Source of the DNA: Clostridia bacterium
GTDB taxonomy: Bacteria > Bacillota > Clostridia > Christensenellales > DTU072
DNA: 57,608 nt
Assembly: GCA_041670385.1 (NCBI GenBank)
Contig: JBAXZI010000004.1
Location: forward strand, 1-57,608
Reading direction: 5' to 3'
Shown here: positions 3,628-45,386 of the stretch, piece after piece
Layout of the letters: every line of letters begins with the position of its first letter
Position numbering within the stretch: position 1 is the stretch's first letter
Notes under the pieces: generated by a model
Seen by the model: the letters and a program-made list of their open reading frames with translations, nothing else
Database searches by the model: none
What the model was told of the DNA's origin: nothing
Translations under genes and position numbers: made by a program

Positions 3628-4782
3628 ATGAGAGGATTAGTTTTAGAAGGTGGAGGAGCAAAAGGGTCGTATCATTGCGGTGCGATTAAGGCTCTCTACG
3701 AAAATGGATATAGTTTTGATGGTGTAGCAGGTACATCTATAGGTGCAATTAATGGTGCTATTGTAGCTCAAGATAATAATGTAAGCACATTGCTTGATTT
3801 ATGGACAAATTTGCAGCCGTCAGATGTTATAGATATAGATGATGAACAACTAGCAAAGTTAAATAACAAGAAATTTGACAAAGCTACTATAAAATATATG
3901 GCATCTAAAGCTTTTCACACATTGAAAAATTTAGGTTTGCCAACTGATAAAATTATACCATTTTTGAAAAAATACATAGATGAAGATAAAGTTCGGGCAA
4001 GCGGTCGAGATTATGCATTGGTTACTTATTCTATAAGTGAACGCAAACCGCTTGAGCTATTTTTGGAAGATATTCCTTATGGTCATTTGCACGAATACAT
4101 ATTTGCTAGTGCATATTTTCCATTATTCAAATTTAACAGAATACAAGGTAAATATTATATGGATGGTGGAGTTTATGACAATTTACCATTAAATACATTG
4201 GGCAATAAAGGCTATGATGAAATTGTAGCTATAAGAACAAATATGGATAAAAACAAGCATTATCGTCCATTGGAAAACAAAAATGTAAAATTAATTATGA
4301 TAGAACCACACGAATATTTGGGCAAGGCTGCAAATATGAATTTAGAAAAAATTGCTTACAATATGAAATTAGGTTATTATGATGCAATTCGTGTAATAAA
4401 AGATTATAAAGGATTACATTATTATTTCCCTACCTTAGATTATGACGATATAAGAAATTTCTTGATAAATTTGTCTGAAAAAACAATTCAAGATATAAAA
4501 ATTTTATTGAAATTACCTAGTATAACCTCAAAATGGGGTGTTATTAATGCAATTTATTATTTTACAAAAGGTGATAATGTGGTATGTGACAATGAAGAAA
4601 GTTTTGTTAGATTTTTGGAAATTTATGCAAAAAAATATGGCGTAGAGAGATTTTGCTACTATACTTTTAATGAATTCCTTGATGTTTTACAAAAAACATA
4701 CATAGAATTAAACGCAAATAAAGAAGTAACTACAAAAGAAGATTTATTATTTAATATGATTATGTCTATGGAGGAACAATGA
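3628..4782 (+). CDS. patatin-like phospholipase
   Basis: Oxyanion motif GGGAKGSYH, nucleophile elbow GTSIGA (GxSxG) and catalytic Asp motif MDGGVYDN. Confidence 0.85.
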   Translation: MRGLVLEGGGAKGSYHCGAIKALYENGYSFDGVAGTSIGAINGAIVAQDNNVSTLLDLWTNLQPSDVIDIDDEQLAKLNNKKFDKATIKYMASKAFHTLKNLGLPTDKIIPFLKKYIDEDKVRASGRDYALVTYSISERKPLELFLEDIPYGHLHEYIFASAYFPLFKFNRIQGKYYMDGGVYDNLPLNTLGNKGYDEIVAIRTNMDKNKHYRPLENKNVKLIMIEPHEYLGKAANMNLEKIAYNMKLGYYDAIRVIKDYKGLHYYFPTLDYDDIRNFLINLSEKTIQDIKILLKLPSITSKWGVINAIYYFTKGDNVVCDNEESFVRFLEIYAKKYGVERFCYYTFNEFLDVLQKTYIELNANKEVTTKEDLLFNMIMSMEEQ

Positions 4783-5882
4783 AAAAGGAAAAAGTTGTTG
4801 GAGTACTAAAGAAACTTTCTAAAAGATGGTTTATTGATGCTTTTACAGGAATGGCACAAGGTTTATTTGTTACATTAATTATAGGAACTATCCTAGCACA
4901 AATAGCTAAGTGGATTGGTGTTAATGCTGTAGGTAATGTGGTTCTAACTACCGCTAATATGGCAAAAATATTAATGGGAGCAGGCATTGGCGTAGGTATA
5001 GCAAATGCACTTAAAGCACCTAAATTAGTTATTTTTTCGGCAGCAGTCGCTGGTATGCTAGGCGCTTGGTCGGATAAAATACTCGGAGGAACATTCCAAT
5101 TTTCATTTTTAATTGGCACTAGTGGTTTACCTGGTAATCCTATCGGTGCTTATGTAGTTAGTTTGATAGCTATAGAAATTTCGTTGTTTGTAGCAGGCAA
5201 AACTAAATTAGATATTATTTTAGTTCCATTTACCGTATTATTGGTATCAATGGTTGCTATGTTTGCAGCTTGGCCTTTTATAAAATTAATAGTACTAGTT
5301 GGCAAGGGAATAGAACTTGCTACAGAGGTACAACCTTTTATTATGGGTATAATAATTGCGGTAAGTATGGGAATACTTCTTACTATGCCGACATCTTCTG
5401 CTGCGATTTGGATTGCGATAGCCGCCACAAATACATCAGATGCAATGTTACTTGCTGGTGGGGCAGCTGTATGCGGTTGTGCTTGTCAAATGGTAGGCTT
5501 TGCAGTACAAAGTTTTCGTGAAAACAAATGGGGTGGTCTTATAGCTCAAGGTTTTGGCACAAGTATGTTGCAAATACCAAACATTATGAGAAAACCAATA
5601 ATATTTATACCGCCTATAGTCGCTAGTGCGATAGTCGGTCCACTTTCTACAGTAGTTTTCCACTTAAGATGTAATGCTTCTGGTGGTGGTATGGGAACAT
5701 CAGGATTAGTTGGAATATTTGGAACAATAGAAGCAAGCACAGGCGTTATTCCTAATTGGGAAATCGGCTTGGGTATTGCTTTGCTTTTCTTTGTGATTCC
5801 TACTATCGTTTGTTTAGGATTGAGCGAATGGTTTAGAAAGAAAGGCTGGATAAATAAAGGAGATATGCTTCTTGAAGGCTAA
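4779..5882 (+). CDS. PTS EIIC-like polytopic membrane protein (PTS_EIIC_2-type); no EIIA or EIIB partner in the window
   Basis: 367 aa, very hydrophobic and Gly/Ala-rich multi-TM protein. The N-terminus KRWFIDAFTGMAQGLFVTLIIGTILAQI resembles the stand-alone EIIC-like family. The ATGA start/stop overlap couples it to the patatin gene. Confidence 0.55.
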   Translation: MKKEKVVGVLKKLSKRWFIDAFTGMAQGLFVTLIIGTILAQIAKWIGVNAVGNVVLTTANMAKILMGAGIGVGIANALKAPKLVIFSAAVAGMLGAWSDKILGGTFQFSFLIGTSGLPGNPIGAYVVSLIAIEISLFVAGKTKLDIILVPFTVLLVSMVAMFAAWPFIKLIVLVGKGIELATEVQPFIMGIIIAVSMGILLTMPTSSAAIWIAIAATNTSDAMLLAGGAAVCGCACQMVGFAVQSFRENKWGGLIAQGFGTSMLQIPNIMRKPIIFIPPIVASAIVGPLSTVVFHLRCNASGGGMGTSGLVGIFGTIEASTGVIPNWEIGLGIALLFFVIPTIVCLGLSEWFRKKGWINKGDMLLEG

Positions 5883-10287: not shown

Positions 10288-11154
10288 TTATTCTTCTACA
10301 TCACTTACATAAACTGCAGCCATTGTATCAGGGCCACAATGCGTACCAATAACTGGTCCAATATCATAATCCCAAATAGTAGCGGTAGGATAAGCTTCTA
10401 AAATTTTAGCTTTGATAAATTCAGCATCTTTTTTGCAATCGCCATTCATGATTCCAATAGGATATTTATCAATATCTCTTACATTTTCGATTACTTCATT
10501 AGCAATAACATTAAGAGATTTTGCTCTTCCATTAACTTTTGAGGTATTGATAAGTTTGCCATCAACCATTTTAATAATTGGTTTTACTTTAAGTATAGAA
10601 CCTAAAGTAGCTTGTGCACTTGATAATCTACCACCTTTCTTTAGGTAATGTAAATCATTAACTGTCATAATTGTTCTAATACGTTTTATGAAAACAGTAA
10701 GGAAATCAATAATTTCTTGATGAGTTTTACCTTCTTGTGCCATTTTACCTGCCATATAAACAGGAATACCTGCAGCAAGAGAGTTTCCTCTTGTATCAAA
10801 ACGTGTAAAGGTGGCATCAGGATATTTTTCTTTTAGTTCTGTAATTGCCATATTTAAATGATTAAAAGTTCCGCTCATTTCTGTAGAAAAACTTATATAA
10901 AGGATATCCTCACCTTTTTTGAAAAATGGTTCGAAATATTCTTTGTATTCTTCTGCGTTAAGTGCTGATGTAATTGGCATATTACCTTCACGAACGGTAT
11001 CAAAAAATTCTTTAGCAGTGTAATGTTCACCAAGGTCATAAAAATATTCTTTTCCGCATATAGTATAAGGCATTCTAATTACATTATTTAAGCCTATTTC
11101 TTTAGCTGTCTTAAAATTTAACTCACAATTTGTGTCTATAAATATAGTTGACAT
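10288..11154 (-). CDS. DegV family fatty-acid-binding protein
   Basis: 288 aa. Typical DegV features: IFIDTNCEL..., SGT motif (EMSGTFN), C-terminal IGPVIGTHCGP. Confidence 0.85.
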   Translation of the reverse strand: MSTIFIDTNCELNFKTAKEIGLNNVIRMPYTICGKEYFYDLGEHYTAKEFFDTVREGNMPITSALNAEEYKEYFEPFFKKGEDILYISFSTEMSGTFNHLNMAITELKEKYPDATFTRFDTRGNSLAAGIPVYMAGKMAQEGKTHQEIIDFLTVFIKRIRTIMTVNDLHYLKKGGRLSSAQATLGSILKVKPIIKMVDGKLINTSKVNGRAKSLNVIANEVIENVRDIDKYPIGIMNGDCKKDAEFIKAKILEAYPTATIWDYDIGPVIGTHCGPDTMAAVYVSDVEE

Positions 11155-13295: not shown

Positions 13296-13324
13296 TTGAT
13301 AGTTTTTTTGCGTTATGTTATCAT
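13296..13324 (+). promoter_or_regulatory. candidate sigma-A promoter of the 13370-18225 operon
   Basis: TTGATA (13296-13301), 17 nt spacer, TATCAT (13319-13324). It sits about 45 nt upstream of the AAGGAGG RBS of the first gene. Confidence 0.4.
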
Positions 13325-13369
13325 TATTATATAATTTGTACTCAAGACTTAATATAAAAGGAGGTCAAT

Positions 13370-14125
13370 ATGGATAATGTTACTAAGGCAAAAATTAATT
13401 TATTTGCCGTACTTCGCAACATTGAAGACTTATGTGAACTAGATAAAGAATCAAAAGAACTTGTTAAAAATACCAAGCTTTCTGTTTCTTTTAATGTTCC
13501 CGAAGTTGGATGTGCTGTACTAATTTTTAAAGGTGGTAAATGCGAATTCATTCCTAATGAATCTAAAGCTGGATTAAAATTATGGTTTAATTCACCTGAG
13601 CATTTTAATAAATTAATGAATGGGGAAAATACAATTCCTTTATTTATCAATGTATTTAAAGTTGGTTTCTTACTAAAAACATTTACTAAATTAGCAGAGC
13701 GTTTGAGTTATTTTCTTCAACCTAAGAGTGAAGATTTATTTAACGATAGAGAATTTTTCGAAATTAATACCAAATTAACTGCTTTTACTGCATTTTTTGC
13801 TTTATGTCAAGTGGGAAATAGTGATAGTACAGGTAAGAAAGTTGCTGCACGTATGTCAAATTCTATAATTGCTTGCGGTATTCCTGGTGTTTTAGACGTT
13901 TATATAAAAGTTGAAGATCATATTATGACAGCATATAAAGGTGAAAATAAAGAGGCAATAGCATTTATGGAATTTGCTGATATAGATTTTGCTCATAATA
14001 TGCTTAGTGGTAAAGAATCAAGCTATGCTGGACTAGGTAGTGGCAAATTCAAGGTAAAGGGTGTTGTTGGTGTACTTAATGAAATGTCAAAACTACTAAA
14101 TCTTGTTAGTGTTTATCTACAATAA
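13370..14125 (+). CDS. hypothetical protein, possibly SCP2/sterol-carrier-like fold; paralog of 17386..18225
   Basis: 251 aa with a strong RBS (AAAGGAGG). No catalytic motif recognised. The C-terminal ...DIDFAHNMLSGKESSYAGLGSGKFKVKGVVGVLNEMSKLL resembles the SCP2 C-terminal signature. It can be aligned by eye to the last gene of the operon. Confidence 0.35.
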   Translation: MDNVTKAKINLFAVLRNIEDLCELDKESKELVKNTKLSVSFNVPEVGCAVLIFKGGKCEFIPNESKAGLKLWFNSPEHFNKLMNGENTIPLFINVFKVGFLLKTFTKLAERLSYFLQPKSEDLFNDREFFEINTKLTAFTAFFALCQVGNSDSTGKKVAARMSNSIIACGIPGVLDVYIKVEDHIMTAYKGENKEAIAFMEFADIDFAHNMLSGKESSYAGLGSGKFKVKGVVGVLNEMSKLLNLVSVYLQ

Positions 14126-14147
14126 TAGAGGAGGTAATTAAGATATT

Positions 14148-15410
14148 ATGATGAAATTAAATACGTATACAAAAAGTAACGAATTATTCAGAAGAGCACT
14201 TAAGGTAGTGCCTGCAGGAATATATGGACATATTGGACCTGCTGAAGGTTGTGCAATACCTACCTCAGCTTTCCCATTATTTATGGATCACGCTAAAGGC
14301 TCTCATTTTTGGGATGTTGATGGCAACGAATTTATTGATTATATGTGTGCTTATGGTCCAAATATATTAGGATATAATGACCCTGATGTTGATGCGGCGG
14401 CAATAGCACAAGCTAAAAAAGTAAATTGTGCATCTGTAGCTCCCGAACTACTTGTAGATTTTGCTGAATTAATGGTAAATACAGTAGATATGGCTGATTG
14501 GGCATTTTTTGCTAAGAATGGTAATGATGCTACACAGTTTGCAACAATGATAGCTAAAGAAAAAACACATAGAAGTAAATTAGTTTTAGTTAATGGTTTT
14601 TATCACGGTGTTTCTCCTTGGTGTCAAAACTATGGATATTCTGGCGTAACTGATGAAGATTTAGTTAACAATTTTTATGTTGATTGGAACAAACCTGAAC
14701 AATTTGAAAGAATTGTTAAAGAACATCCAGGCGAAATCGCTGCATTTATTTCTACACCTTATTATCATCCTGCAATGGGTGATAGCGAATTACCTGCTGA
14801 AGGTTATTGGCTAAAGATTAGAAAAATTTGTGATGAAAACGGAATTGTTCTTATATTTGATGATGTTCGTTGTGGTTTCCGTCTTGATATTGCGGGTAGT
14901 GATAAGCATTTTGGTATAAAAGCCGATTTAGAATGTTTTTGTAAAGCTATTGCTAATGGTTGGAATGTTTCCGCTATTTGTGGTACTTCAGAAATGAAAG
15001 GTGCTGCCGAAAATATTATGTTTACAGGTAGTTATTGGCTAAGTGCAATTCCATTTGCCGCTGGTATTGCTTGTATTAACAAGATGAAAGAAAATAATAC
15101 AGCAGCTTCAATAAAAGCAAAAGGTATCAAACTTCAAACTGGTTTGCAAGATGTTGCAAAATCAAACGGATTCAAATTGAAAGTTAGCGGAGAACCAGCA
15201 ATGTGGTTTATGAGATTAGAAAATGATTATCCATCAGCTATTATGCATCAAGAATGGGTTGCTGAATGTGTAAAGAGAGGCATTTTCTTTACTAGTCATC
15301 ATAATTGCTTCATTAATGATGCAATTACTGAAGAAGATATAAAACAAACTTTGGATGTAGCGGACGAAGCTTATAAAGTAGTTAAGTCTATGCACCCGGA
15401 TTTTCAATAA
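14148..15410 (+). CDS. class-III PLP-dependent aminotransferase / aminomutase (HemL, glutamate-1-semialdehyde aminomutase-like)
   Basis: 420 aa. N-terminal VVPAGIYGH...GSHFWDVDGNEFIDYMCAYGPNILGY, FDDVRCGFR, and the PLP-Lys region ADLECFCKAIANG. Confidence 0.8.
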   Translation: MMKLNTYTKSNELFRRALKVVPAGIYGHIGPAEGCAIPTSAFPLFMDHAKGSHFWDVDGNEFIDYMCAYGPNILGYNDPDVDAAAIAQAKKVNCASVAPELLVDFAELMVNTVDMADWAFFAKNGNDATQFATMIAKEKTHRSKLVLVNGFYHGVSPWCQNYGYSGVTDEDLVNNFYVDWNKPEQFERIVKEHPGEIAAFISTPYYHPAMGDSELPAEGYWLKIRKICDENGIVLIFDDVRCGFRLDIAGSDKHFGIKADLECFCKAIANGWNVSAICGTSEMKGAAENIMFTGSYWLSAIPFAAGIACINKMKENNTAASIKAKGIKLQTGLQDVAKSNGFKLKVSGEPAMWFMRLENDYPSAIMHQEWVAECVKRGIFFTSHHNCFINDAITEEDIKQTLDVADEAYKVVKSMHPDFQ

Positions 15411-15423
15411 ATAGGAGGTTAGT

Positions 15424-16299
15424 ATGGCATTAGACAAAAAAGAATGGTTACACCTTGAAGATAAAGCTAATGATTTACGTAATTTGTGTTTGCAAACTAC
15501 TCATTGGTCAGGTAGCGGTCACGTAGGTGGAAGTTTAAGTGTGATGGATATTATCACAGCACTATATTTTAAGTATATGAATTTTGATCCAAAAAATTAT
15601 GAAGATCCAGATAGAGACCGTTGCGTAGTAAGTAAAGGACACGCTGGTATCGGTTTAGCTGGTTTATTTGCTGATTTAGGATTATTAGATGTAGAAGACT
15701 TAAAAACATTTAACCTTACAGGTAGCAAACTAGGTATGCACTTAGATAGTAATAAGGTTAAGGGCTTAGATTTTTCTACAGGTTCACTAGGACACGGTTC
15801 TTCATTGGCACTTGGTTGTGCATTAGCTGGCAGAATAAACAAGAAAGCTTATAAAACTTTCTTAATATTAGGCGATGGCGAATGTGATGAAGGAAGTGTT
15901 TGGGAAGCTGCTATGGCTACAGCACATTTTAAAGTTGGCAATCTTGTTACTATAGTTGATCGTAATAAATATAGTATTGATGGCAATACCGAAGATGTTA
16001 TGTCATTAGAACCATTTGACAAAAAATGGGAAGCTTTTGGTTTTGATGTAAAGGTTATTGATGGTCATCGCTTTGATGAAATATGCGAAGCACTTGATTA
16101 TGCAACATCTAAGAAAGATGGAGATAAGCCAGTTTGCATTATAGCAAAAACTATAAAAGGTCAAGGGATTAGCTTTATGGCAGATAACTATAAGTGGCAT
16201 TATGGCGCAATTGATGATGAAAAATATGAAATTGCTAAGAAAGATTTAGCTGAATATTGTGCTAAAAGAAAAGCAGTAGCAGAAAAGGAGGGCAAATAA
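15424..16299 (+). CDS. transketolase, N-terminal (ThDP/PP-domain) subunit of a split enzyme
   Basis: 291 aa. SGHVGGSLS, and the ThDP-binding motif GDGECDEGSVWEA...N(28 aa)...DRN. Confidence 0.9.
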   Translation: MALDKKEWLHLEDKANDLRNLCLQTTHWSGSGHVGGSLSVMDIITALYFKYMNFDPKNYEDPDRDRCVVSKGHAGIGLAGLFADLGLLDVEDLKTFNLTGSKLGMHLDSNKVKGLDFSTGSLGHGSSLALGCALAGRINKKAYKTFLILGDGECDEGSVWEAAMATAHFKVGNLVTIVDRNKYSIDGNTEDVMSLEPFDKKWEAFGFDVKVIDGHRFDEICEALDYATSKKDGDKPVCIIAKTIKGQGISFMADNYKWHYGAIDDEKYEIAKKDLAEYCAKRKAVAEKEGK

Positions 16300-16300
16300 G

Positions 16301-17383
16301 ATGGCAGGTGGATTAGTTTTTACAGCAGTAGAAAGTACACAATTAGCTACAGCTGAAATATTTGGTAAGACACTTTGTGAACTTGGTGAAAAGAATCCAA
16401 AAATCGTTGCATTAACAGCTGATTTGAAAGGTTCTACCAAAATCGGTGAATTTGGTGAAAAGTTCCCAGATAGGTTTATAAATGTAGGTATTGCTGAACA
16501 AAATATGTACGGTACAGCAGCAGGACTAGCAAAATGCGGATTTATTGCGTTTGCTTCTTCATTCTCAGTATTTGCATCATTGCGTTCATTGGACCAAATT
16601 CATACAGATATATGTTATCAAAATGTAAATGTAAAAATAATTGGTACTCATGGCGGTACTTCATTCGGACAAGCAGGTTCTACTCATCACGCTATCGAAG
16701 ACTTTGCGGTTATTCGTGGTTTGGTAAATATGACATTAATTTGTCCAGCTGATGGTATAGAAACAGGTTTAGCAGTTCGTGCAGCAGCAGCAACAGATGG
16801 ACCTTTTTATATCCGTATTAATCGTGGTTTTGACCAAGTTGTTTATAACAATGATGATTATGGATTTAAAGTAGGTAAAGCAGTTACTATGGCTGAAGGC
16901 GACGATATCACAATAATTGCTTGTGGTTCTTGCGTATATCAAGCTATTCAAGCAGCTAAGGTATTGGCGTATGATCACAATATTCACGCTAGAGTACTTA
17001 ATATGCATACTTTAAAGCCAATTGATAGAGAAGCAATTTTGAAAGCAGTTAAGGAAACTCGTCGTATTGTTACCGCAGAAGATCATTCTGTTATTGGTGG
17101 ACTAGGCAGTGCAGTAGCTGAAGTAGTCGTTGAAGGCGGTTTGGCTTGTTCATTCAGGAAATTGGGTTTACAAGATGAATTTTCAAAAATAGGAATGCAC
17201 GAAGACTTAATGGCTATGTATGAAATTGATGCTGAAGGTATTGTAAAGAATGTACTTGAAGTAGTTAAGTCAGAATATGAAAAAACAGAAGTTAGCGGTA
17301 AAAAAGTAAAAGCTGATGATGCAAAACAGTCAGCTGAAGTAGTTACTGCTCCAAGTGGTGCAAACTGGATTGATGAGGTGTAA
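16301..17383 (+). CDS. transketolase, C-terminal (Pyr + C-domain) subunit with an extra charged C-terminal tail
   Basis: 360 aa. FINVGIAEQNMYGTAAGLA, GTHGGTSFGQAGSTHHAIED. The start lies 1 nt after the upstream stop. The last ~45 aa (EYEKTEVSGKKVKADDAKQSAEVVTAPSGANWIDEV) extend beyond the usual end of the family. Confidence 0.9.
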   Translation: MAGGLVFTAVESTQLATAEIFGKTLCELGEKNPKIVALTADLKGSTKIGEFGEKFPDRFINVGIAEQNMYGTAAGLAKCGFIAFASSFSVFASLRSLDQIHTDICYQNVNVKIIGTHGGTSFGQAGSTHHAIEDFAVIRGLVNMTLICPADGIETGLAVRAAAATDGPFYIRINRGFDQVVYNNDDYGFKVGKAVTMAEGDDITIIACGSCVYQAIQAAKVLAYDHNIHARVLNMHTLKPIDREAILKAVKETRRIVTAEDHSVIGGLGSAVAEVVVEGGLACSFRKLGLQDEFSKIGMHEDLMAMYEIDAEGIVKNVLEVVKSEYEKTEVSGKKVKADDAKQSAEVVTAPSGANWIDEV

Positions 17384-17385
17384 AA

Positions 17386-18225
17386 ATGACAATAAATAAA
17401 ATGACTCAAGGAGATAAATATGCGTTAAGAATATTCTTCTTCTCTGCGTTGCCTTTATTAAAAGTTATTGCTACTACCGAACCTAAATTTAAGAAGAAAT
17501 TTGAAGGAAAAAGTTTTGTATTTCAAATAAGTGTATTGTCAGATGAATTCAAAAAAACTGGCAAGTTATCTACTCATTTTGTAGTGGAAAATGGAGAGTG
17601 GACTACTCACGTTAGTGAAACTCATCCAAGTCCAGATATAGAGTTGGAATTCCCTACAGTAGAAAAATTTATCCTATTCTTCACAGGTAAGGGTATGCCA
17701 TTGCCAAAAATGAAGGGCGTATTTAAGAACTTTGGTAAATTTGTCGCAATCTTGCTAACGCTACTTAGAATGGCAGGTTTGTTGCAAGCAACCGAAATTC
17801 CTACTAAACAAGAAGACCAAAACTTACTAGTAAAATTGTATTTCTATTTGCTTAGTAATGGTATTAGTCAACTTAACAAAACAGGACACGAAGAAGCTAC
17901 ACAATTTACTGAAGTAAGTCCAGATAGAACTTATGCATTTGCAGTAACTGGACATGATGATTTGCAATCGTGGTTGCGAGTATGCAGAGGTAAATCCGTA
18001 GCAGGTCACGGCGAATATAAGAGATGTAAACCATTTCTTACAATGAGATTCGATAATACCGAACACGCATTAGGTATTCTTATGAGTAAAGCTGATATGA
18101 TAGATTATATGAAAAAAAGTTATCTAAGAATAGAAGGTGCTCCAGAATTCGGTGGTGCATTAGGTAATCTAATGATGACTGTAGGTTATTATGCACAAGG
18201 TGCATACCTAGATGCAAAAAAATAA
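17386..18225 (+). CDS. hypothetical protein, possibly SCP2-like fold; paralog of 13370..14125
   Basis: 279 aa, starting 2 nt after the transketolase stop. It shares blocks with the first gene, for example LEFPTVEKFILFFTGKGMPLP...FKNFGKF versus LWFNSPEHFNKLMNGENTIPL...FKVGFLL, and the C-terminal F-D...A..IL..K...........G.......L..L block. Confidence 0.35.
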   Translation: MTINKMTQGDKYALRIFFFSALPLLKVIATTEPKFKKKFEGKSFVFQISVLSDEFKKTGKLSTHFVVENGEWTTHVSETHPSPDIELEFPTVEKFILFFTGKGMPLPKMKGVFKNFGKFVAILLTLLRMAGLLQATEIPTKQEDQNLLVKLYFYLLSNGISQLNKTGHEEATQFTEVSPDRTYAFAVTGHDDLQSWLRVCRGKSVAGHGEYKRCKPFLTMRFDNTEHALGILMSKADMIDYMKKSYLRIEGAPEFGGALGNLMMTVGYYAQGAYLDAKK

Positions 18226-18257
18226 TATAGTAAAAATTAATAAAAGTTAATAAAATT

Positions 18258-18299
18258 AAGTGGATATAACATTTTGTATGGTATATCCACTTATTTTTG
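18258..18299 (+). terminator. intrinsic terminator closing the 13370-18225 operon
   Basis: Hairpin AAGTGGATATA (18258-18268) / TATATCCACTT (18282-18292), followed by ATTTTTGT. Confidence 0.75.
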
Positions 18300-18330
18300 T
18301 GTATAATAAAGAAAAAGAGGTTTTAATTAA

Positions 18331-19272
18331 ATGACAAAAATAGTTGTATTAGATGCAAGTCCAATGTCACAAAATGACATTACCATAGAAAGTTTAAGCA
18401 AATTAGGTGAATTTTTTGCCTATGAAAGAACGCCTGATAATCTTATAATAGAAAGAATAGGCGATGCTGAAATCGTACTTACAAATAAAGTACTTATTGA
18501 TAAGAATGTAATGGATTTATGTCCTAATATAAAATTTATTTCAATTTTAGCTACAGGTACAAATGTAGTAGATTTGGAATATGCAAAATCTAAAGGTATT
18601 ATCGTTAGCAATGTGCCTGCTTATAGTACTGAAAGCGTAGCCCAACACACATTTGCGTTGTATTTAGAATTATGTTCTAAGGTAGGTATTCATACTCAAT
18701 CGGTACATAACGGCGATTGGGTAAATAGTAAAGATTTTTGTTATTGTTTGGATAGTGTTGTAGAAATAAATAATAAGGTATTTGGTATCATAGGTTACGG
18801 AAATATTGGTAAAAGAGTAGCCGAAATAGCTAAAGCATTTGGAATGAAAGTGCTTATTAATAATAGAACGCCATTTGAGGGTAGTGTAAGCATAAATGAA
18901 GTTTTGGAAAAATCAGATGTTGTTTCTTTACATTGTCCACTAACTAGTGCTAATGAAAAATTTATTAATAAAAATACAATTTCAAAAATGAAAAAAAGTG
19001 CTGTGATAATCAATACAGCTCGTGGCGGGCTCATAGAGGAGCAAGACTTAGCCGATGCACTAAATAGTAAACAAATAGCAGGTGCGGGGCTTGACGTCTT
19101 GACTATAGAAAAACCGAATAAAGATAATCCTTTATTAAGTGCAACTAATTGCATAATAACACCGCATATTGCTTGGGCAAGTTATGAAGCAAGAGCAAGA
19201 CTATTAGAAGTCACTAGGAATAATATAATTAAATATCTAGATAAAAAACCTCAAAATGTGGTTAACAAATAA
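18331..19272 (+). CDS. D-isomer-specific 2-hydroxyacid dehydrogenase (glycerate dehydrogenase / hydroxypyruvate reductase-like)
   Basis: 313 aa. NAD fold GIIGYGNIGKRVA, then ARGGLIEEQDL and the catalytic His region ITPHIAWAS. Confidence 0.85.
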   Translation: MTKIVVLDASPMSQNDITIESLSKLGEFFAYERTPDNLIIERIGDAEIVLTNKVLIDKNVMDLCPNIKFISILATGTNVVDLEYAKSKGIIVSNVPAYSTESVAQHTFALYLELCSKVGIHTQSVHNGDWVNSKDFCYCLDSVVEINNKVFGIIGYGNIGKRVAEIAKAFGMKVLINNRTPFEGSVSINEVLEKSDVVSLHCPLTSANEKFINKNTISKMKKSAVIINTARGGLIEEQDLADALNSKQIAGAGLDVLTIEKPNKDNPLLSATNCIITPHIAWASYEARARLLEVTRNNIIKYLDKKPQNVVNK

Positions 19273-19461: not shown

Positions 19462-19545
19462 GTGGATGTGGCGAAACGGCAGACGCGTACGCTTGAGGGG
19501 CGTATGGATAAAACCTTGTGAGTTCAAGTCTCATCATCCACACCA
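19462..19545 (+). tRNA. tRNA-Leu (anticodon GAG), type II with long variable arm, CCA encoded
   Basis: Folded by hand. Acceptor GTGGATG/CATCCAC; 3-bp D stem GCG/CGC; anticodon stem TACGC/GCGTA with loop TTGAGGG; T arm GTGAG-TTCAAGT-CTCAT; 3' ACCA. Confidence 0.9.
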
Positions 19546-19571
19546 TCTTTTTATGCATAAGGAGGAAAGTC

Positions 19572-20447
19572 GTGAAAAAAGTTAGAAAAGCGGTTATACC
19601 GGCAGCAGGATTTGGAACGAGATTCTTGCCAGTAACAAAATCAATGCCAAAAGAAATGTTGCCTATAGTTGATGTTCCTAGCATACAGTATATAGTAGAA
19701 GAATGTGCGAATAGTGGAATTACTGATATTTGCATTATTTTAGGTAGAGGCAAAAATTCAATAGCAGATCATTTTGACCGTAATATTGAAGTAGAAAATA
19801 CTTTAAATGAAGCTGGAAAATTTGATTTTTTACAAAAGATGAATAGTTTACAAGGAAGAGTCAATATTGTATATGTAAGACAATGGGCGATGCAGGGTAC
19901 AGGTAAGGCTATAGAACTTTGTAAAACTTTTGTAGGAGATGAACCATTTGCAGTTTTATTTGGTGATGATGTTATTTATAATCCAGATTATCCTGTAATA
20001 AAACAACTTATGGATGCTTTTGATAAAACTGGTTCTACTATAGTTGGTGTTCAAACCCAACCAAAGGAAGAATGTCCAAAATATGGTGTTGTTGTACCGG
20101 GTAAAGTTAAGGGTAAGTTTACAGAACTACTTGGATTCAAAGAAAAACCTAAATTGGAAGAATTACCATCACAGTTGACAAGTTTAGGAAGATATATACT
20201 AACTCCTGAAATATTTAGTTACATATCGAAGACAGAACCAGCAAAAAATGGTGAGGTTTATTTACCTACTGCGATAGAATTAATGAGTAGTGATGTTAGT
20301 GTTTATGCATATGAATTTGATGGTAAAAGATACGATATTGGAGATAAACTCGGATATGTTAAGGCAAATATTGAATATGGACTTAGACATGAAGAGATAA
20401 AAGACGGATTAAAAGAATACCTAAAGGGAATAATATCACAATTGTAG
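19572..20447 (+). CDS. galU: UTP--glucose-1-phosphate uridylyltransferase
   Basis: VKKVRKAVIPAAGFGTRFLPVTKSMPKEMLP. GTG start 6 nt after AAGGAGGAAAG. The longer ORF in the track (19518) would overlap the tRNA, so the shorter start is preferred. Confidence 0.9.
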   Translation: MKKVRKAVIPAAGFGTRFLPVTKSMPKEMLPIVDVPSIQYIVEECANSGITDICIILGRGKNSIADHFDRNIEVENTLNEAGKFDFLQKMNSLQGRVNIVYVRQWAMQGTGKAIELCKTFVGDEPFAVLFGDDVIYNPDYPVIKQLMDAFDKTGSTIVGVQTQPKEECPKYGVVVPGKVKGKFTELLGFKEKPKLEELPSQLTSLGRYILTPEIFSYISKTEPAKNGEVYLPTAIELMSSDVSVYAYEFDGKRYDIGDKLGYVKANIEYGLRHEEIKDGLKEYLKGIISQL

Positions 20448-25592: not shown

Positions 25593-26699
25593 TTAATTCA
25601 CATTGTCTTCAACAATAAGCATTTTAGCAAAACTTTTTGAACTGCACATAATCACACCTGCGCCCAAACAAATAGCTAAGTCTACAAATACAAATAAATT
25701 GTATAAAAATCCCCAAGCTATAGCTCCGTAACCAGCTTCTGCATAACAAGAGAAAGCGAAAATACCGCTTGTTACGTGACAGAAATAACGTAATATTCCT
25801 GCAAATAATCCACCAAAAAATATAGAAAGAACAACATTATTTTTGAAAATGCCTATTTCTTTAAATATTCCAGCTAAACCAATTGCGCCAAAAGCTATTA
25901 TATAGTCAAGGAAAAATTGTGCAGGGTGAATTATCCAAGGGTCTTGAATTGCTTGCAATATTCCAAAAATAGAACCAATTAGTACACCTTTTCTAATACC
26001 GAACATATAACTATAGAAAATTATAGGTAGTAGGCAAGCAAGAGTTACTGACCCGCCTTGAGGTAATTTGAACATTCTAATATAGCTTAATGCAAAAGCA
26101 AGTGCGATAGAAACTGATGCATAAACAATACTTTTTGTAGTAGTTTTTCTCTTTTTCCCAAATATTAATGCTAAAGCAACAATAATTACTATTAATGCTA
26201 TTGCACTAATTATTAAGCCAATATTGCTTACATTCTCATAATATTCACTATCTTTGATATTTTGAACATAATAAATTGATATACAAACAATACTTGCTAT
26301 TACAGGTAAAGTAATGATACCAAGTCCAATAAATGAATATTTTTTCATTATCTCTGGTTTAATTAAGTTAATAGCAATACCAATTACAGCAAGCAAAATG
26401 CCTACAATTGCAGTAACTAATATAGGATAGAATATTAGCGGATAAAGATATCCCTCGGTTACCATTGCGTCTATTTTAAAGAAGAACATAGAACAAATAA
26501 CAGTAATAGAGTATCCTACTAAGATACCAATAGCATATTTACTAAAACTAGGCATATTTTCTTTGCGATATTTTTTAGTAAAAAAACCGATTATGGCAAT
26601 AATTGCCACTAGTGAGATAGTTACATATAAAAATATGCGACTAAATTTGTCATCAATTGACATTTCAGAAAAGGGTATGGTTGTTGTAGATAAAAGCAT
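25593..26699 (-). CDS. thiT: thiamine ECF-transporter S component ThiT fused to an extra N-terminal multi-TM domain
   Basis: The C-terminal ~180 aa carry ThiT hallmarks (ALSYIRMFKLPQGGSVTLA..., HPAQFFLDYIIAFGAIGLAG). Start reassigned to the ATG at 26699, 5 nt after AAGGAG. The track start at 26750 lies inside the riboswitch terminator. Confidence 0.75.
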   Translation of the reverse strand: MLLSTTTIPFSEMSIDDKFSRIFLYVTISLVAIIAIIGFFTKKYRKENMPSFSKYAIGILVGYSITVICSMFFFKIDAMVTEGYLYPLIFYPILVTAIVGILLAVIGIAINLIKPEIMKKYSFIGLGIITLPVIASIVCISIYYVQNIKDSEYYENVSNIGLIISAIALIVIIVALALIFGKKRKTTTKSIVYASVSIALAFALSYIRMFKLPQGGSVTLACLLPIIFYSYMFGIRKGVLIGSIFGILQAIQDPWIIHPAQFFLDYIIAFGAIGLAGIFKEIGIFKNNVVLSIFFGGLFAGILRYFCHVTSGIFAFSCYAEAGYGAIAWGFLYNLFVFVDLAICLGAGVIMCSSKSFAKMLIVEDNVN

Positions 26700-26736
26700 T
26701 TTTTCTCCTTCTATTGCATTATGGCGAGCTATAAAC

Positions 26737-26860
26737 GAAAAAACTCGCAAGCAAACTAGCTTACGAGCGACAGTTTACTTCCTTTCGTGAGTACTAACTC
26801 AATCAAGTTCGGAGGGTTTAATCTCAGACATTCTTTTGGGAATGTCACCCCTAGCAATAA
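26737..26860 (-). promoter_or_regulatory. TPP (THI-box) riboswitch with terminator expression platform
   Basis: The reverse strand reads CTAGGGGTGACATTCCCAAAAGAATGTCTGAGATTAAACCCTCCGAACTTGATTGAGTTAGTACTCACGAAAGGAAG. This contains the conserved GGGGUG, CUGAGA, ACCC and GAAC(U)UGAU...AGGAAG blocks. It is followed by the hairpin CTCGTAAGC/GCTTGCGAG plus U6. Confidence 0.85.
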
Positions 26861-28475: not shown

Positions 28476-29447
28476 ATGAAAAAATTATCAAAAATTTTAG
28501 TAATTGTTATGGTCTTGTCTTTAGTATGCTGTGTACTATTTGCGTGCGGAAATAAAGAACCAGAAAATGCAACTATCAACATTACTATCCCTGATGGTGC
28601 TCCAACTCTAGCTATGGCTAAACTAATGAAAGATTTTAGCTATAAAGATTATGATATTAATTATGAAATAGTGTCTGGTACATCAGAAATTGGTGCAAAG
28701 ATGACTCAAGGTCAAACTGATATATCTATTGTACCTACCAATATGGCAAGTATTCTTTACGCAAATGGTCTTGATATCAAATTGCTTTCAAGTAATGTGT
28801 TTGGTTTACTTTATATAATGGGTAATGGAGATGTAAATGCTACTTCACTTAGTGATATGGATGGCAAAACAATCTATTGTATAGGTCAAGGTGGTACACC
28901 TGATTTTGTATTGCAATATTTATTGCAAGAAAACAATATAAATGCTACAATAATTTATGTTGCTTCAGGTACTGATGTAATTCCACTTCTTATGACAAAA
29001 AAGGCTGAATTTGCTGTTTTGGGAGAACCCGCTGCAACTATGAGTGTATCTAAAGCAGGTGCAAAAGTATTGTTTGATATGCAAGAAGAATGGGAAAAAC
29101 TTACCCAATTTAATGGATATCCTCAAGCATCAACTGTTGTTCGTAGCGAAATTGTAGAAACTTACCCTGGTTTTGTAAAAGCTTTTTATGAAGCAATGGA
29201 AGAAAATATAAGTTATATCGAAAATGAAGAAAATTTAGAAGAACTTACAAATACGCTTAAAGATAATGGAAGTGCAGTAGTTTTCTCTAGTACAGCTGTA
29301 ATTAAAAAGTGTAATATGAGAGTTGAAGACTGTGCTACCGCAAAAGCAAGCATAGTAAACTATTTGAGTGTTCTTAAAGATTTTAACCCAGCAACTATTG
29401 GCGGAGAATTGCCAGATGATGCATTTTATTATAATATAAGTAAATAA
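28476..29447 (+). CDS. ABC importer substrate-binding lipoprotein, NMT1/THI5 (NitT/TauT)-like
   Basis: Signal peptide with lipobox LFAC-G; 323 aa periplasmic-binding-protein-like sequence; followed directly by a permease and an ATPase. Confidence 0.7.
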   Translation: MKKLSKILVIVMVLSLVCCVLFACGNKEPENATINITIPDGAPTLAMAKLMKDFSYKDYDINYEIVSGTSEIGAKMTQGQTDISIVPTNMASILYANGLDIKLLSSNVFGLLYIMGNGDVNATSLSDMDGKTIYCIGQGGTPDFVLQYLLQENNINATIIYVASGTDVIPLLMTKKAEFAVLGEPAATMSVSKAGAKVLFDMQEEWEKLTQFNGYPQASTVVRSEIVETYPGFVKAFYEAMEENISYIENEENLEELTNTLKDNGSAVVFSSTAVIKKCNMRVEDCATAKASIVNYLSVLKDFNPATIGGELPDDAFYYNISK

Positions 29448-29448
29448 T

Positions 29449-30204
29449 ATGAAATTAAAAAACAGACGGCTTATGAATATAGTTTATCCAATTATCTCAC
29501 TAGGACTTTTAGTCTTAGTGTGGTTTTTGGTGGCTAAGGCCGTTGATATCCAACTTATTGTCCCACGGGTTGGTGATACATTTTCAAAACTGTGGCGATT
29601 ATTGGGTGAAAATAGTTTTTATTTGGCTTTAGGTGGTACGCTTTGGCGTTCTTTACTGAGTTTTTTTATTGCTTTAGTACTTGCCATTTTACTAGCAATA
29701 ATTAGTAATTTTATACCGGTAATTTATAAATTGCTAACACCTATAGTAACAATTATTCGTGCAATACCTACGATGAGTGTAATCTTGCTAACAATAATTT
29801 GGCTTAATTCTGATTATAGCCCATTATTGATTACACTTTTTATAATCTTTCCTATTATGTATAGTAATTTTTATACAGGTATAACCTCCGTAGATAGCGA
29901 ACTAATTGAAATGAGTAAGGCTTATAATGTGCGTAAGAAAGATATGATTTTTTCTTTGTATTTACCCAATATTGCCCCGAGTTTTTTTGACACTTTACAA
30001 TCAGCTATTTCTCTAAATGTAAAAATAATTATATCCGCAGAAGTTTTGGCACAAACAAAACTTTCAATGGGACTTATGATGAAATTGTCAAAAGGTATAC
30101 TTGATACATCCGAACTTTTAGCTTGGACAATAGTTGCTATTTTGTTAAGCTACTTTTTGGAAAATGTTATTATTCTAATTAAAAAATTAGTTATTAGGTG
30201 GTAA
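29449..30204 (+). CDS. ABC transporter permease (NitT/TauT-type)
   Basis: 251 aa with about 6 TM segments and a BPD-transporter-like cytoplasmic loop. Tightly packed with its neighbours. Confidence 0.8.
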   Translation: MKLKNRRLMNIVYPIISLGLLVLVWFLVAKAVDIQLIVPRVGDTFSKLWRLLGENSFYLALGGTLWRSLLSFFIALVLAILLAIISNFIPVIYKLLTPIVTIIRAIPTMSVILLTIIWLNSDYSPLLITLFIIFPIMYSNFYTGITSVDSELIEMSKAYNVRKKDMIFSLYLPNIAPSFFDTLQSAISLNVKIIISAEVLAQTKLSMGLMMKLSKGILDTSELLAWTIVAILLSYFLENVIILIKKLVIRW

Positions 30205-30209
30205 AAATT

Positions 30210-30899
30210 ATGCAATTGACCAATATTTATAAAAAATTTGATAAAAAAGTAGTATTTGAAGATTTTTCAATGAATTTTGATGAGCACAAAATAACTTGTA
30301 TTTTAGGCAAGTCCGGTTGTGGTAAAACCACACTTTTAAACATTATTGCAGGTGTTATTACTGCTGAAAGCGGTGTAGTTGTCGGAAAAAGTGAAAAAAT
30401 TAGTTATATTTTCCAAAATCAATTATTATTAAAGAATCTAACTGTTTATAAAAATTTGGAATATGTTCTTAAGAATACTGTATTTTCCAAAGAAGAAATA
30501 AATAAGCAAATAAAAGCTATTTTAGATAAAGTACAATTATCCGAATATGCTAAATATTATCCCAAACAATTAAGCGGTGGAATGGCACAAAGGGTTAGTT
30601 TAGCAAGGGCTTTCGTATATCCTAGTGACCTAATTTTAATGGACGAACCTTTCAAAGGTTTAGATGTTAGCTTAAAAAAGAGGATAATGAACCTTTTTAA
30701 GGATTTGTATAGAGATAATTCTAAAACCACAATTTTTGTAACACACGATATCGAAGAATCACTAATTCTAGGCGATAGAATAATAGTTTTAGATGATGGT
30801 GGCAAAATTTTACTAGATAAAAAAATTGCACAATCAATTTTTGAAAGAGATATTAACTCTTTAGCTGATTTACGTGCAGAGATATATAATATTATATAA
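30210..30899 (+). CDS. ABC transporter ATP-binding protein (canonical)
   Basis: Walker A GKSGCGKTT, Q-loop IFQNQ, signature LSGGMAQR, Walker B LILMDEP, H-loop VTHD. ATG is 10 nt after AGGTGG. Confidence 0.9.
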   Translation: MQLTNIYKKFDKKVVFEDFSMNFDEHKITCILGKSGCGKTTLLNIIAGVITAESGVVVGKSEKISYIFQNQLLLKNLTVYKNLEYVLKNTVFSKEEINKQIKAILDKVQLSEYAKYYPKQLSGGMAQRVSLARAFVYPSDLILMDEPFKGLDVSLKKRIMNLFKDLYRDNSKTTIFVTHDIEESLILGDRIIVLDDGGKILLDKKIAQSIFERDINSLADLRAEIYNII

Positions 30900-44897: not shown

Positions 44898-44974
44898 CGG
44901 GGTGTAGCGCAGTTTGGTAGCGCACATGGTTTGGGACCATGGGGTCGGGAGTTCGAATCTCTTCGCCCCGACCA
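44898..44974 (+). tRNA. tRNA-Pro (TGG)
   Basis: Acceptor CGGGGTG/CGCCCCG; anticodon stem CATGG/CCATG with loop TTTGGGA; T loop TTCGAAT; CCA encoded. Confidence 0.9.
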
Positions 44975-44999
44975 ATAATTTATAGTGACTAAATCCAAT

Positions 45000-45076
45000 G
45001 GGCCTTTAGCTCAGCTGGTTAGAGCGATCGGCTCATAACCGATTGGTCCGCGGTTCAAGTCCGTGAAGGCCCACCA
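45000..45076 (+). tRNA. tRNA with CAT anticodon; elongator type, probably tRNA-Ile2 (lysidine) rather than Met
   Basis: GGGCCTTTAGCTCAGCTGGTTAGAGC...ATCGG-CTCATAA-CCGAT. The G1-C72 pair excludes an initiator. Overall it resembles Bacillus Ile-CAU as I remember it. The identity cannot be settled by eye. Confidence 0.8.
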
Positions 45077-45104
45077 AAAACATTATGTGACTTTATATTT
45101 ATAC

Positions 45105-45181
45105 GGTCCGGTAGTTCAGCTGGTTAGAACGCTAGCCTGTCACGCTAGAGGTCGAGGGTCCGAACCCCTTCCGGATCGCCA
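45105..45181 (+). tRNA. tRNA-Asp (GTC), with an atypical T loop
   Basis: Acceptor GGTCCGG/CCGGATC; anticodon stem CTAGC/GCTAG with loop CTGTCAC; T arm GAGGG-TCCGAAC-CCCTT; GCCA end. Confidence 0.85.
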
Positions 45182-45187
45182 ACAATC

Positions 45188-45379: not shown

Positions 45380-45386
45380 AATTTAA

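Follow-up and report, generated by a model that had tools for sequence, protein, structure and literature searches.

What can a bacterium do with a transketolase and an aminotransferase that are encoded side by side and flanked by two proteins of no annotated function? The question is posed by a five-gene operon in a 57,608-nucleotide stretch of DNA from a Clostridia bacterium (GenBank assembly GCA_041670385.1, contig JBAXZI010000004.1, positions 1 to 57,608 of the forward strand); this entire stretch is called the window below. In order, the operon genes, designated g1 to g5, encode a protein of predicted SCP2 fold, a class-III pyridoxal phosphate (PLP) enzyme, the N- and C-terminal halves of a split transketolase (TK-N and TK-C), and a second protein of predicted SCP2 fold. 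A sixth gene, g6, follows as a separate transcription unit. We propose that the operon specifies a cytosolic two-step module that acts on the polar head of a lipophilic, sphingoid-type 2-amino-1,3-diol, with the degradative direction favored; the probability assigned to this reading is roughly 0.45. Gene order, conservation, folds, active-site substitutions, and a gene fusion were established directly, and from them we infer the substrate class, the direction, and the physical complexes.

Conservation of the gene block

A survey with one genome per species yielded 59 loci, onto which the six window proteins were mapped. These derived mostly from Christensenellales- and Oscillospiraceae-type metagenome-assembled genomes (MAGs), with the addition of one Myxococcales MAG (L061); the sources were digesters, the guts of termites, chickens, and humans, and groundwater. 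Eight loci were interrupted by contig ends. All five genes, co-directional and in the same order, were present in 43 of the 51 informative species-level loci. The same order was found in the cultured Oceanirhabdus sp. W0125-5, in an Oscillospiraceae chromosome, in close relatives of the window, and in distant MAGs. Homologs of g1 and g5 formed 167 and 688 clusters, respectively; almost all of these came from uncultured Clostridia, and “hypothetical” was the annotation throughout. The identity of g5 across families was 55–82%. The gene set is thus a conserved operon and not a chance juxtaposition; a preliminary description of the window had already called it an uncharacterized operon. That description had also matched the set to no characterized pathway, and no publication describing this set of transketolase (TK), SCP2, and aminotransferase genes was found in the literature.

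The same description had treated g1 and g5 as a symmetric bracket around the enzymes, a view that did not survive the survey. Eight loci with ample upstream sequence carried TK-N, TK-C, and g5 only. The g1 and g2 genes were never found apart, and in two loci approximately 3 kb of unrelated genes were located between g1/g2 and the TK genes. The block consists instead of two enzyme-plus-carrier pairs, g1 with the aminotransferase and TK with g5, of which TK plus g5 is the invariant core.

The aminotransferase

The PLP-binding lysine of g2 is K266, in the sequence ECFCKAIANG. Among solved structures, the top match was 6HBS/6HBV, “aminopentol aminotransferase” (300 bits, E = 1.8e-88, residues 8–412), with 37% identity to 6HBS over 405 columns; the next-best matches, glutamate-1-semialdehyde (GSA) aminomutases in the PDB, scored 133 bits or less. 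All NCBIfam models were well below their cutoffs, including TIGR00713 (hemL; 181.5 bits, cutoff 527.3) and GntE (208 bits, cutoff 525). Identity with HemL was rejected on these scores, on the difference between 133 and 300 bits, and on the lack of hem genes in the window. The earlier label “HemL-like” was therefore misleading; the nearest characterized relative is FumI.

The assignment of 6HBS to FumI of Sphingopyxis sp. MTA144 was made through the published cloning primer, which encodes M-A-N-G-T-R and fits residues T5-R6-Q7 of the crystallized chain, where the alignment starts; a structural paper on FumI or 6HBS was not found in the literature. In the FumI paper, “aminopentol” denotes AP1, a hydrolyzed fumonisin (PMC3136697, PMC2933618). 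The enzyme transfers the C2 amine of hydrolyzed fumonisin B1, a C20 sphinganine analog, to pyruvate, also accepts oxaloacetate and glyoxylate, and has a Km of 1.1 μM for the lipid substrate; its authors remarked that C1–C5 of the 2-keto product “resembles a simplified ketose” (PMC3136697, PMC2933618). With its class-III fold, Lys266, and a full-length best match to FumI (albeit at 37% identity), g2 may be a FumI-type enzyme. Deamination of this type, applied to a sphingoid base that bears a 1-hydroxyl, would yield HOCH2-CO-CH(OH)-R, which is the ketol that a transketolase cleaves.

The split transketolase

The closest solved TK was the split enzyme of Carboxydothermus hydrogenoformans (274 and 227 bits for the two halves), with human TK also close; against a single TK model of NCBIfam, the halves scored 255 and 285 bits. 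The hallmarks of the family were all present, namely the pyrophosphate (PP), pyrimidine (Pyr), and C domains, the thiamine diphosphate (ThDP) motif (G150-D-G...N181 in g3), and the catalytic histidines. Residues were mapped by aligning a human-TK chain with native numbering directly to g3/g4. Human His37, His77, His110, and His258 corresponded to H33, H73, H106, and H259 of g3; the four histidines and the GDG sequence were invariant in 55 family members.

The substrate channel was altered. Human Ser345, His416, and Arg474 were retained as S45, H117, and R175 of g4 and were invariant in 50 members. Arg318, however, was replaced by Ala18 (positions 16352–16354; Ala in 48/50 members and Ser in 2/50), and Glu423-Asp424 by Gln124-Ala125 (at position 125, Ala in 46/50 and Gly in 4/50). 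The surrounding sequence in g4 is G-Q-A-G-S-T-H-H (16667–16690) in place of G-E-D-G-P-S-Q-M. Three remote members (L061, L064, P0345) had G-Q-[A/G]-G-x-T-H-H in common and also lacked the Arg, whereas human and C. hydrogenoformans TK keep both the Arg and G-E-D-G. Human R318, S345, H416, and R474 (E. coli R358, S385, H461, and R520) are ligands of the substrate phosphate, and D424 (E. coli D469, yeast D477) contacts the 2-hydroxyl of the acceptor; the equivalence of human R318 and E. coli R358 comes from our own mapping. In E. coli TK, S385 contacts the phosphate, and variants at D469 and R520 have moved the enzyme from phosphorylated to non-polar aldehydes (PMC5073344). Judged by these residues, g3/g4 is a catalytically competent TK with a predicted channel for something other than sugar phosphates. 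The ligand set of a canonical sugar-phosphate TK (EC 2.2.1.1) was incomplete, with Arg318 and Asp424 lost in all 50 members and in the remote ones.

The g5 gene was immediately 3' of TK-C in every informative locus, and the g4–g5 junctions were 1–4 nt or overlapping in nearly all loci. A 601-aa protein, P0345, combines Transket_pyr and Transketolase_C domains, a linker rich in Ser, Thr, and Pro, and a g5-like domain; it is encoded after a TK-N gene on a high-GC contig (L067). As a Rosetta-stone fusion, P0345 argues for a physical association of TK-C with g5. Unexpectedly, 49 of 50 clustered TK-C subunits, including those of Oceanirhabdus and the Myxococcales MAG, terminated in [D/N]-W-x-D-E-[V/T], and the lone exception was a frameshifted or truncated ORF (L012). 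The remote TK-C subunits L064/L065 had an identical tail type. The linker ahead of the motif varied in length and sequence, and an ending of this type was found in 1 of 83 long segments of open reading frame (ORF) in the window. In the fusion, the motif is replaced by the Ser/Thr/Pro linker and the g5-like domain. The tail, hereafter DWxDEV, is probably a docking peptide that tethers g5.

The fusion contig was also of note for what follows the fused gene. The stretch L067:7138-14035 contains TK-N, the fusion, co-directional genes for 341-aa and 479-aa proteins, a glyoxalase, and a gene of the FA_hydroxylase superfamily. The 341-aa and 479-aa products had no Pfam, PDB, or g1-profile match. A variant system that employs other partner enzymes may be encoded here.

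The evidence above bears on an alternative in which g3/g4 is an ordinary pentose-phosphate TK that lies beside unrelated genes by chance. Both halves fit the TK family model well, a second TK was not found in the 57.6-kb window, and C. hydrogenoformans lives with a split TK alone (PMC7661550). Chance would nevertheless have to account for the strict linkage of TK and g5 across phyla together with a fusion protein, for the family-wide loss of a substrate Arg and Asp that the ordinary split TK keeps, for a C-terminal tail specific to this family, and for the translational coupling of the five genes. We consider this explanation scarcely credible.

The SCP2-fold proteins

The preliminary description had called g1 and g5 paralogs and had raised the idea that they are SCP2-like. 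BLASTP was blind to the relationship (no detectable similarity; best E = 8.3). When profiles built from alignments of 28 homologs each were compared in hhalign, the two families aligned end to end over 240 columns (probability 96.3%, E = 1.9e-9, 18% identity). By this profile comparison, g1 and g5 are remote paralogs.

Sequence-profile searches of the PDB with g1 and g5 returned nothing meaningful (a phosducin-like match at E = 0.005, or none), and a fold search was therefore needed. The AlphaFold2 models had a mean predicted local-distance score (pLDDT) of 93.8 and a predicted template-modeling score (pTM) of 0.90 for g5, and 88.8 and 0.85 for g1. Both models featured a helix/four-strand/helix pattern that was repeated twice in each protein. 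Foldseek comparison to the PDB gave SCP2-fold matches only for both proteins (SCP2, SCP2-like, UbiJ-SCP2, and the C-terminal SCP2-like domain of alkylsulfatase), at a probability of 1.00 and target TM values of 0.5–0.67, and each match spanned about half of the query. The SCP2-like character of the two proteins was thus borne out at the level of fold.

The half-length matches and the repeated secondary structure suggest an internal duplication, such that g1 and g5 would be tandem double-SCP2 proteins. Signals from sequence were fainter: Pfam SCP2 was significant for the N-half of g1 alone, hhalign of the g1 halves gave a weak match (E = 2.6e-4, probability 42%), and hhalign of the g5 halves gave no signal of internal duplication. 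None of the findings that the preliminary description had named as fatal to its proposal was made: the block is conserved, the bracketing proteins fit the predicted SCP2 family, and the HemL score of g2 is below cutoff.

Among 1.84 billion representative proteins, no more than 208 relatives of g5 were located with a profile. The remote full-length members P0261, P0273, and P0321 were again encoded directly after a split TK, and g5 of the Myxococcales MAG (L061) likewise follows one. Another remote double-SCP2 relative, P0283 (L068/L069:8001-10851), had no adjacent TK and was located beside a multihaem cytochrome and rubrerythrin; from this context, the functions of the double-SCP2 family may extend beyond TK.

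Invariant polar or charged residues were numerous in g5 (D10, Q47, T63, E86, S178-P-D-R181, R198, R213, and E254), which is odd for a passive lipid carrier. They speak for a different reading, in which the substrate is a small, soluble amino-polyol or amino-ketol (of the serinol or aminodeoxy-sugar-alcohol type) and g1 and g5 are structural, regulatory, or catalytic subunits, e.g. a ketol isomerase or epimerase. SCP2-like domains do occur in non-lipid contexts, and the TK has kept three phosphate/anion ligands. On the other hand, the matches of g1 and g5 are exclusively to lipid-binding SCP2 domains, and the closest relative of the aminotransferase works on a lipid-like C20 chain. A small substrate is, in our estimation, distinctly unlikely; the gene neighborhoods described below bear on it further.

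Proposed pathway

The preferred reading, a module for a lipophilic sphingoid-type amino-diol, would proceed as follows. In the first step, g2, assisted by g1, would exchange the C2 amine with a 2-oxo acid such as pyruvate, so that the amino-diol and its 1,3-dihydroxy-2-ketone, in effect a “lipid ketose,” are interconverted; this step is proposed because g2 is homologous to FumI. In the second, g3/g4 would break or make the C2–C3 bond of the ketol by means of ThDP. Cleavage would free a long-chain aldehyde and leave a glycolaldehyde unit bound to ThDP (dihydroxyethyl-ThDP); this unit would be passed to an acceptor or released. The basis for this step is the chemistry of the TK family and the precedent of the steroid desmolase DesAB. 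The carriers, g1 for the aminotransferase and g5 for the TK, would lift the lipid from the membrane and offer it to their soluble partner enzymes, a role modeled on that of UbiJ/UbiT with ubiquinone intermediates, and the DWxDEV tail of TK-C would tether g5. In a third step, the aldehyde would be oxidized, reduced, or saturated by clade-specific enzymes, i.e. a class-3 aldehyde dehydrogenase (ALDH), an ene-reductase-type flavoenzyme, a Zn-dependent alcohol dehydrogenase (Zn-ADH), or a glyoxalase. In the clade of the window, g6 might balance the 2-oxo-acid co-substrate or the C2 product.

Neighboring genes and direction of the pathway

The preliminary description had placed a D-2-hydroxyacid dehydrogenase in the next transcription unit, and the 2-Hacid_dh domains of g6 were confirmed. 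The best NCBIfam model was PRK06487 (329 bits, cutoff 448); the nearest solved structure was the uncharacterized 5TX7 (289 bits), and glycerate dehydrogenase scored 169 bits. By sequence, g6 would be a D-2-hydroxyacid dehydrogenase of the glycerate dehydrogenase or hydroxypyruvate/glyoxylate reductase type and a clade-specific accessory. It adjoined the block in 20 of the 59 loci, including two (L022 and L032) without g1 and g2. The role as hydroxypyruvate/glycerate partner that had been suggested for it is conjectural, since linkage was confined to those 20 loci and enzymes directed at aldehydes or enals were found in its stead elsewhere.

In the clade of the window, a fixed neighborhood was kept: DegV, a class-IV aminotransferase, alr, the block, g6, tRNA-Leu, galU, and clpC. 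Other clades had different neighbors. A 376-aa MerR-type regulator was directly 5' of g1 in 12 loci, and a flavoenzyme with OYE and Pyr_redox_2 domains was directly 3' of g5 in nine; the nearest solved relatives of the latter were 2-naphthoyl-CoA reductase and 2,4-dienoyl-CoA reductase. A class-3 ALDH occupied the position directly 3' of g5 in four loci (385–474 bits to class-3 ALDHs, with 385 bits to the fatty aldehyde dehydrogenase 4QGK). Outside the clade of the window, further recurrent neighbors were an MFS transporter, a Zn-ADH, a glyoxalase, and TetR. All these neighbors hint at action on lipids, aldehydes, enals, or enoyl compounds, or are of a kind usually seen in induced responses to lipophilic toxicants. 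The remaining flanking genes of the 59 loci were mostly unrelated and non-recurrent (defense-like genes, GH38, gyrB, CTP synthase, and others).

In six loci (L011–L014, L017, and L057; e.g. L012:12687-16167, minus strand), a divergent gene set was located 2–5 kb downstream of the block. It comprised a second class-III aminotransferase (24–29% identical to g2), one or two Aldolase_II genes, and TetR. This set may represent a related or an independent amino-compound pathway.

For the small soluble substrate introduced above, the neighborhoods cut both ways. Sugar and housekeeping genes surround the block in the clade of the window. Across the 59 loci, however, no sugar kinase, isomerase, or sugar transporter was linked to it. 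A class-3 ALDH, a dienoyl-CoA-reductase-like enzyme, and, at the fusion locus, FA_hydroxylase were among the neighbors.

The flavoenzyme is also pertinent to a steroid alternative, in which a steroid or polycyclic ketol undergoes DesAB-like side-chain cleavage, the SCP2 proteins are literal sterol carriers, and the flavoenzymes are steroid ene-reductases. DesAB is the sole characterized split TK that acts on a lipophilic ketol, sterols are bound by the SCP2 fold, and enzymes of the OYE plus Pyr_redox_2 type, present beside the block in those nine loci, include the BaiCD/BaiH-type steroid reductases. A FumI-like aminotransferase, though, has no function in steroid chemistry, and 84% of loci encode one together with the TK. 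Neither a hydroxysteroid dehydrogenase (the DesAB-type 20-hydroxysteroid enzyme, i.e. a desC/desE analog) nor a steroid transporter was linked in any of the 59 loci. Corticosteroids are not to be expected in the digesters, termite guts, and groundwater that yielded the carriers, and the nearest solved relatives of the flavoenzyme are acyl-CoA-type reductases. Steroid cleavage is accordingly judged very unlikely.

The question of direction is closer to the preferred reading, as a biosynthetic pathway would employ the same chemistry. The TK would join a fatty aldehyde and hydroxypyruvate to give the 1,3-dihydroxy-2-ketone, g2 would aminate this to a sphingoid-type 2-amino-1,3-diol, g6 would make hydroxypyruvate from D-glycerate, the release of CO2 would render the reaction irreversible, and g1/g5 would carry the intermediates. 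A membrane or signaling lipid would in this way be made independently of serine palmitoyltransferase. In agreement with this direction, the operon of the window clade has a conserved housekeeping setting without a regulator or transporter; g6 is of the glycerate dehydrogenase/hydroxypyruvate reductase type and is linked to TK plus g5 in 20 loci, two of them without g1/g2; and the proteins are strongly conserved, as the interfamily identities of g5 attest. The natural pair AniP/AniQ, moreover, is biosynthetic. The loss of Asp and Arg is the means by which engineers have obtained TKs for aliphatic aldehydes and hydroxypyruvate, and TK–transaminase cascades give 2-amino-1,3-diols in vitro (PMC5073344).

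Against synthesis, a source of fatty aldehyde (acyl-CoA or acyl-ACP reductase), an N-acyltransferase, and a head-group enzyme were linked in none of the 59 loci. The neighbors in other clades were of aldehyde-removing or xenobiotic type (ALDH, ene-reductase, glyoxalase, MFS, MerR/TetR), the nearest characterized aminotransferase (FumI) is catabolic, and the taxonomic distribution is patchy. Transfer of an amine to pyruvate is thermodynamically favored, and we know of no report of sphingoid lipids in these Clostridia. Biosynthesis is considered unlikely. Degradation was ranked above it because genes for aldehyde supply or lipid finishing were not linked, the neighbors look catabolic or detoxifying, and FumI is catabolic; the context evidence leans toward degradation or detoxification.

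The preferred reading, degradation of a sphingoid-type amino-diol, is itself subject to several counterpoints. The sphingoid-like substrate, first raised in the preliminary description, has gained two independent supports, the kinship with FumI and the loss of TK recognition residues, but its identity is still argued wholly from homology and context. An identity of 37% to FumI leaves the specificity and orthology of g2 unfixed. The TK keeps three of the four phosphate ligands (Ser45, His117, and Arg175), and an anionic partner substrate is possible. The SCP2 fold is no proof of lipid binding, and the polar residues of g5 could indicate a catalytic or structural role. Natural D-erythro sphingoid bases have, by our own stereochemical reasoning, a C3 configuration opposite to that of canonical TK donors. 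The accessory neighbors differ by clade, and each is present in a minority of loci. The clade of the window has no adjoining regulator, transporter, ceramidase, or aldehyde-handling gene; its conserved housekeeping setting in a small genome also fits a constitutive, possibly biosynthetic role. The more specific claim of a sphingoid route new to science in anaerobic Firmicutes, which would dispense with serine palmitoyltransferase and sphingosine-1-phosphate (S1P) lyase in favor of C2 transamination and ThDP-dependent C2–C3 cleavage or synthesis, with double-SCP2 partners and DWxDEV docking, is possible but doubtful.

Organization of the locus

The features of the locus are collected in Table 1. 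The tight spacing of five co-directional ORFs noted at the outset was exactly reproduced, with gaps of 22, 13, 1, and 2 nt between g1 and g5 and of 105 nt between g5 and g6. The earlier domain calls for g2, g3, g4, and g6 were confirmed in Pfam and NCBIfam scans. Ribosome-binding sites of the GGAGG type were located 5' of g1, g2, and g3.

Table 1. Coordinates of the operon, g6, and associated DNA signals in the window.
Feature	Position	Strand	Description
Candidate sigma-70 promoter	13296-13324	+	TTGATA-17-TATCAT; TG before -10; 10/12 matches
g1	13370-14125	+	251 aa; Pfam SCP2 27 bits, N-terminal part alone
g2	14148-15410	+	420 aa; Aminotran_3 139 bits; PLP-Lys K266 at 14943-14945
g3	15424-16299	+	291 aa; Transketolase_N (PP domain); ThDP motif 15871-15966
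g4	16301-17383	+	360 aa; Transket_pyr + Transketolase_C (Pyr + C domains)
g4 C-terminal tail NWIDEV	17363-17380	+	Conserved across family; preceded by variable linker
g5	17386-18225	+	279 aa; no Pfam match; SCP2 fold predicted from AlphaFold2/Foldseek
Intrinsic terminator	18250-18305	+	12-bp AT-rich stem, then T-run
g6	18331-19272	+	313 aa; 2-Hacid_dh catalytic + NAD domains; separate transcription unit

The promoter candidate lies within the 119-nt gap between alr and g1. The site exists as described earlier and has a TG extension, but such sites were no more frequent in the window (ca. 30% GC) than in shuffled sequences (38 observed, 40.3 expected); with match statistics at background level, the promoter is plausible by position alone. 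The terminator fared better. The hairpin 3' of g5 had a folding energy of -20.4 kcal/mol (z = -5.75), and 0 of 200 shuffles were as good, which confirmed the hairpin and T-run that had been said to close the block. The hairpin is followed by TTATTTTTG. A simple generic terminator scan of the window missed this hairpin and returned nothing.

The block is flanked by the class-IV aminotransferase gene and alr upstream and by tRNA-Leu, galU, and clpC downstream. The flanks, once described as pure housekeeping, mostly are, but DegV and a patatin-like lipase are also nearby. The DegV (fatty-acid-binding) gene (10288–11154, minus strand) is two genes upstream of the operon; DegV was near the block in 10 loci and was co-directional with it in three termite-gut MAGs (L025, L045, L048). 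The patatin-like lipase gene adjoins a PTS_EIIC_2 gene (3628–5882, plus strand). The proximity of these two genes is a further, weak pointer to lipids.

Genes for the uptake of thiamine or its precursors were also observed. A ThiT/YuaJ-type thiamine transporter domain with a fused N-terminal region of ca. 200 aa is encoded at 25593–26750 (minus strand), and an NMT1/THI5-like binding protein with a permease and an ATPase is encoded at 28476–30899 (plus strand). Their location 7–12 kb from a ThDP enzyme may be a coincidence. The GalU ORF as listed (19518–20447, GTG start) overlaps tRNA-Leu(GAG) (19462–19545) by 28 nt, and the true galU start is for that reason placed further downstream. A cluster of six tRNA genes (Pro, Met, Asp, Phe, Thr, Tyr) is present at 44898–45471 on the plus strand. 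Nearly all window genes are on the plus strand, and the cumulative GC skew rises steadily; together, these are consistent with a single replichore.

Significance and comparison with known systems

If the substrate assignment is true, the operon would represent a new way to cut or make sphingoid bases, which are abundant antimicrobial lipids of hosts, diets, and Bacteroidota; a new solution to C2–C3 cleavage would bear on how sphingolipids are turned over in guts and digesters. Irrespective of the substrate, the locus defines a putative tandem double-SCP2 family (ca. 200 representative clusters in 1.8 billion proteins) with obligate ThDP- or PLP-enzyme partners, and a natural TK lineage with a remodeled channel that is relevant to the engineering of TK variants and cascades for chiral amino-diols.

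The closest comparison for g2 is FumI (PDB 6HBS/6HBV). Both have the class-III PLP fold, and the FumI reaction involves a C2 amine beside a C3 hydroxyl on a long sphinganine-like chain, pyruvate as acceptor, and a ketose-like 2-ketone. The differences are that the substrate of FumI is a 1-deoxy compound, such that the product is a methyl ketone and not a TK-type ketol, and that FumI is encoded, along with an esterase, in the fumonisin cluster of an aerobic alphaproteobacterium; an SCP2 partner or transketolase is not described for it in the parts of the FumI literature that were available to us. FumI-type deaminases are used in mycotoxin detoxification, where a relative from gut anaerobes with a built-in follow-up enzyme may matter.

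For g3/g4, the steroid-17,20-desmolase DesAB of Clostridium scindens is likewise a split TK of a Clostridium, with neighboring genes for the N and C parts (PMC3735941, PMC12876203). Its substrate is a lipophilic ketol of the HOCH2-CO-C(OH) type, and the proposed fate of the C2 unit is central metabolism (PMC3735941, PMC12876203). Its operon, which is cortisol-inducible, differs: it includes genes for a hydroxysteroid dehydrogenase and a transporter and lacks genes for SCP2-fold partners and an aminotransferase; this comparison is one of gene context. The split TK of C. hydrogenoformans (PDB 6YAJ/6YAK) has the alpha2-beta2 split architecture in common with g3/g4 (PMC7661550). It retains the channel Arg and Glu-Asp, has no DWxDEV tail, and is the housekeeping TK of its organism.

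The counterparts of g1 and g5 are UbiJ and UbiT of the ubiquinone metabolon (PDB 6H6N–6H6P), SCP2-fold accessories that were among the best structural matches and that hold hydrophobic intermediates for soluble enzymes. UbiJ and UbiT each consist of one SCP2 domain, work with hydroxylases and methyltransferases, and have no sequence relationship to g1 and g5, which would be double domains in tandem, the one devoted to a PLP enzyme and the other to a ThDP enzyme.

The preliminary description had viewed the block as a natural TK–transaminase module. The conserved pairing supports that view, although a precedent exists in AniP/AniQ/AniN of anisomycin biosynthesis, in which a TK-family ThDP enzyme acts on non-phosphorylated substrates and an aminotransferase aminates the resulting ketone (PMC11387542). 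AniP is a single-chain, 603-aa TK with aromatic 2-oxo acid donors from an actinomycete secondary-metabolite cluster; SCP2 partners are lacking, and the product is a soluble benzylpyrrolidine precursor (PMC11387542). In the engineered E. coli TK variants (D469T/E, R520Q, S385Y; PMC5073344), the mutated Asp is at the position that is naturally Ala or Gly in the g4 family, and the product class of the TK–omega-transaminase cascades, 2-amino-1,3-diols, is the class of substrate or product proposed here. Those enzymes are artificial, and g4 keeps the equivalents of R520 and S385 and loses that of R358 instead.

Sphingoid bases are antibacterial lipids whose bacterial catabolism is not settled; the sphBCD genes of Pseudomonas, the sole system that has been studied, have an unidentified product and are unrelated to the TK–aminotransferase block. 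In the eukaryotic route, S1P lyase cuts the C2–C3 bond of sphingoid bases, and the resulting long-chain aldehyde is oxidized by the class-3 enzyme ALDH3A2. That route needs phosphorylation and a PLP-dependent retro-aldol lyase, and it releases phosphoethanolamine. The proposed route would cut the same bond by transamination and ThDP-dependent ketol cleavage, with neither kinase nor lyase, and the class-3 ALDH found 3' of g5 in four loci parallels ALDH3A2. Natural pairs of a TK-like enzyme and an aminotransferase (AniP/AniQ) and lipophilic TK substrates (DesAB) are thus already known; what is new is the gene combination, the predicted double-SCP2 partner family, and the remodeled TK channel with its conserved tail.

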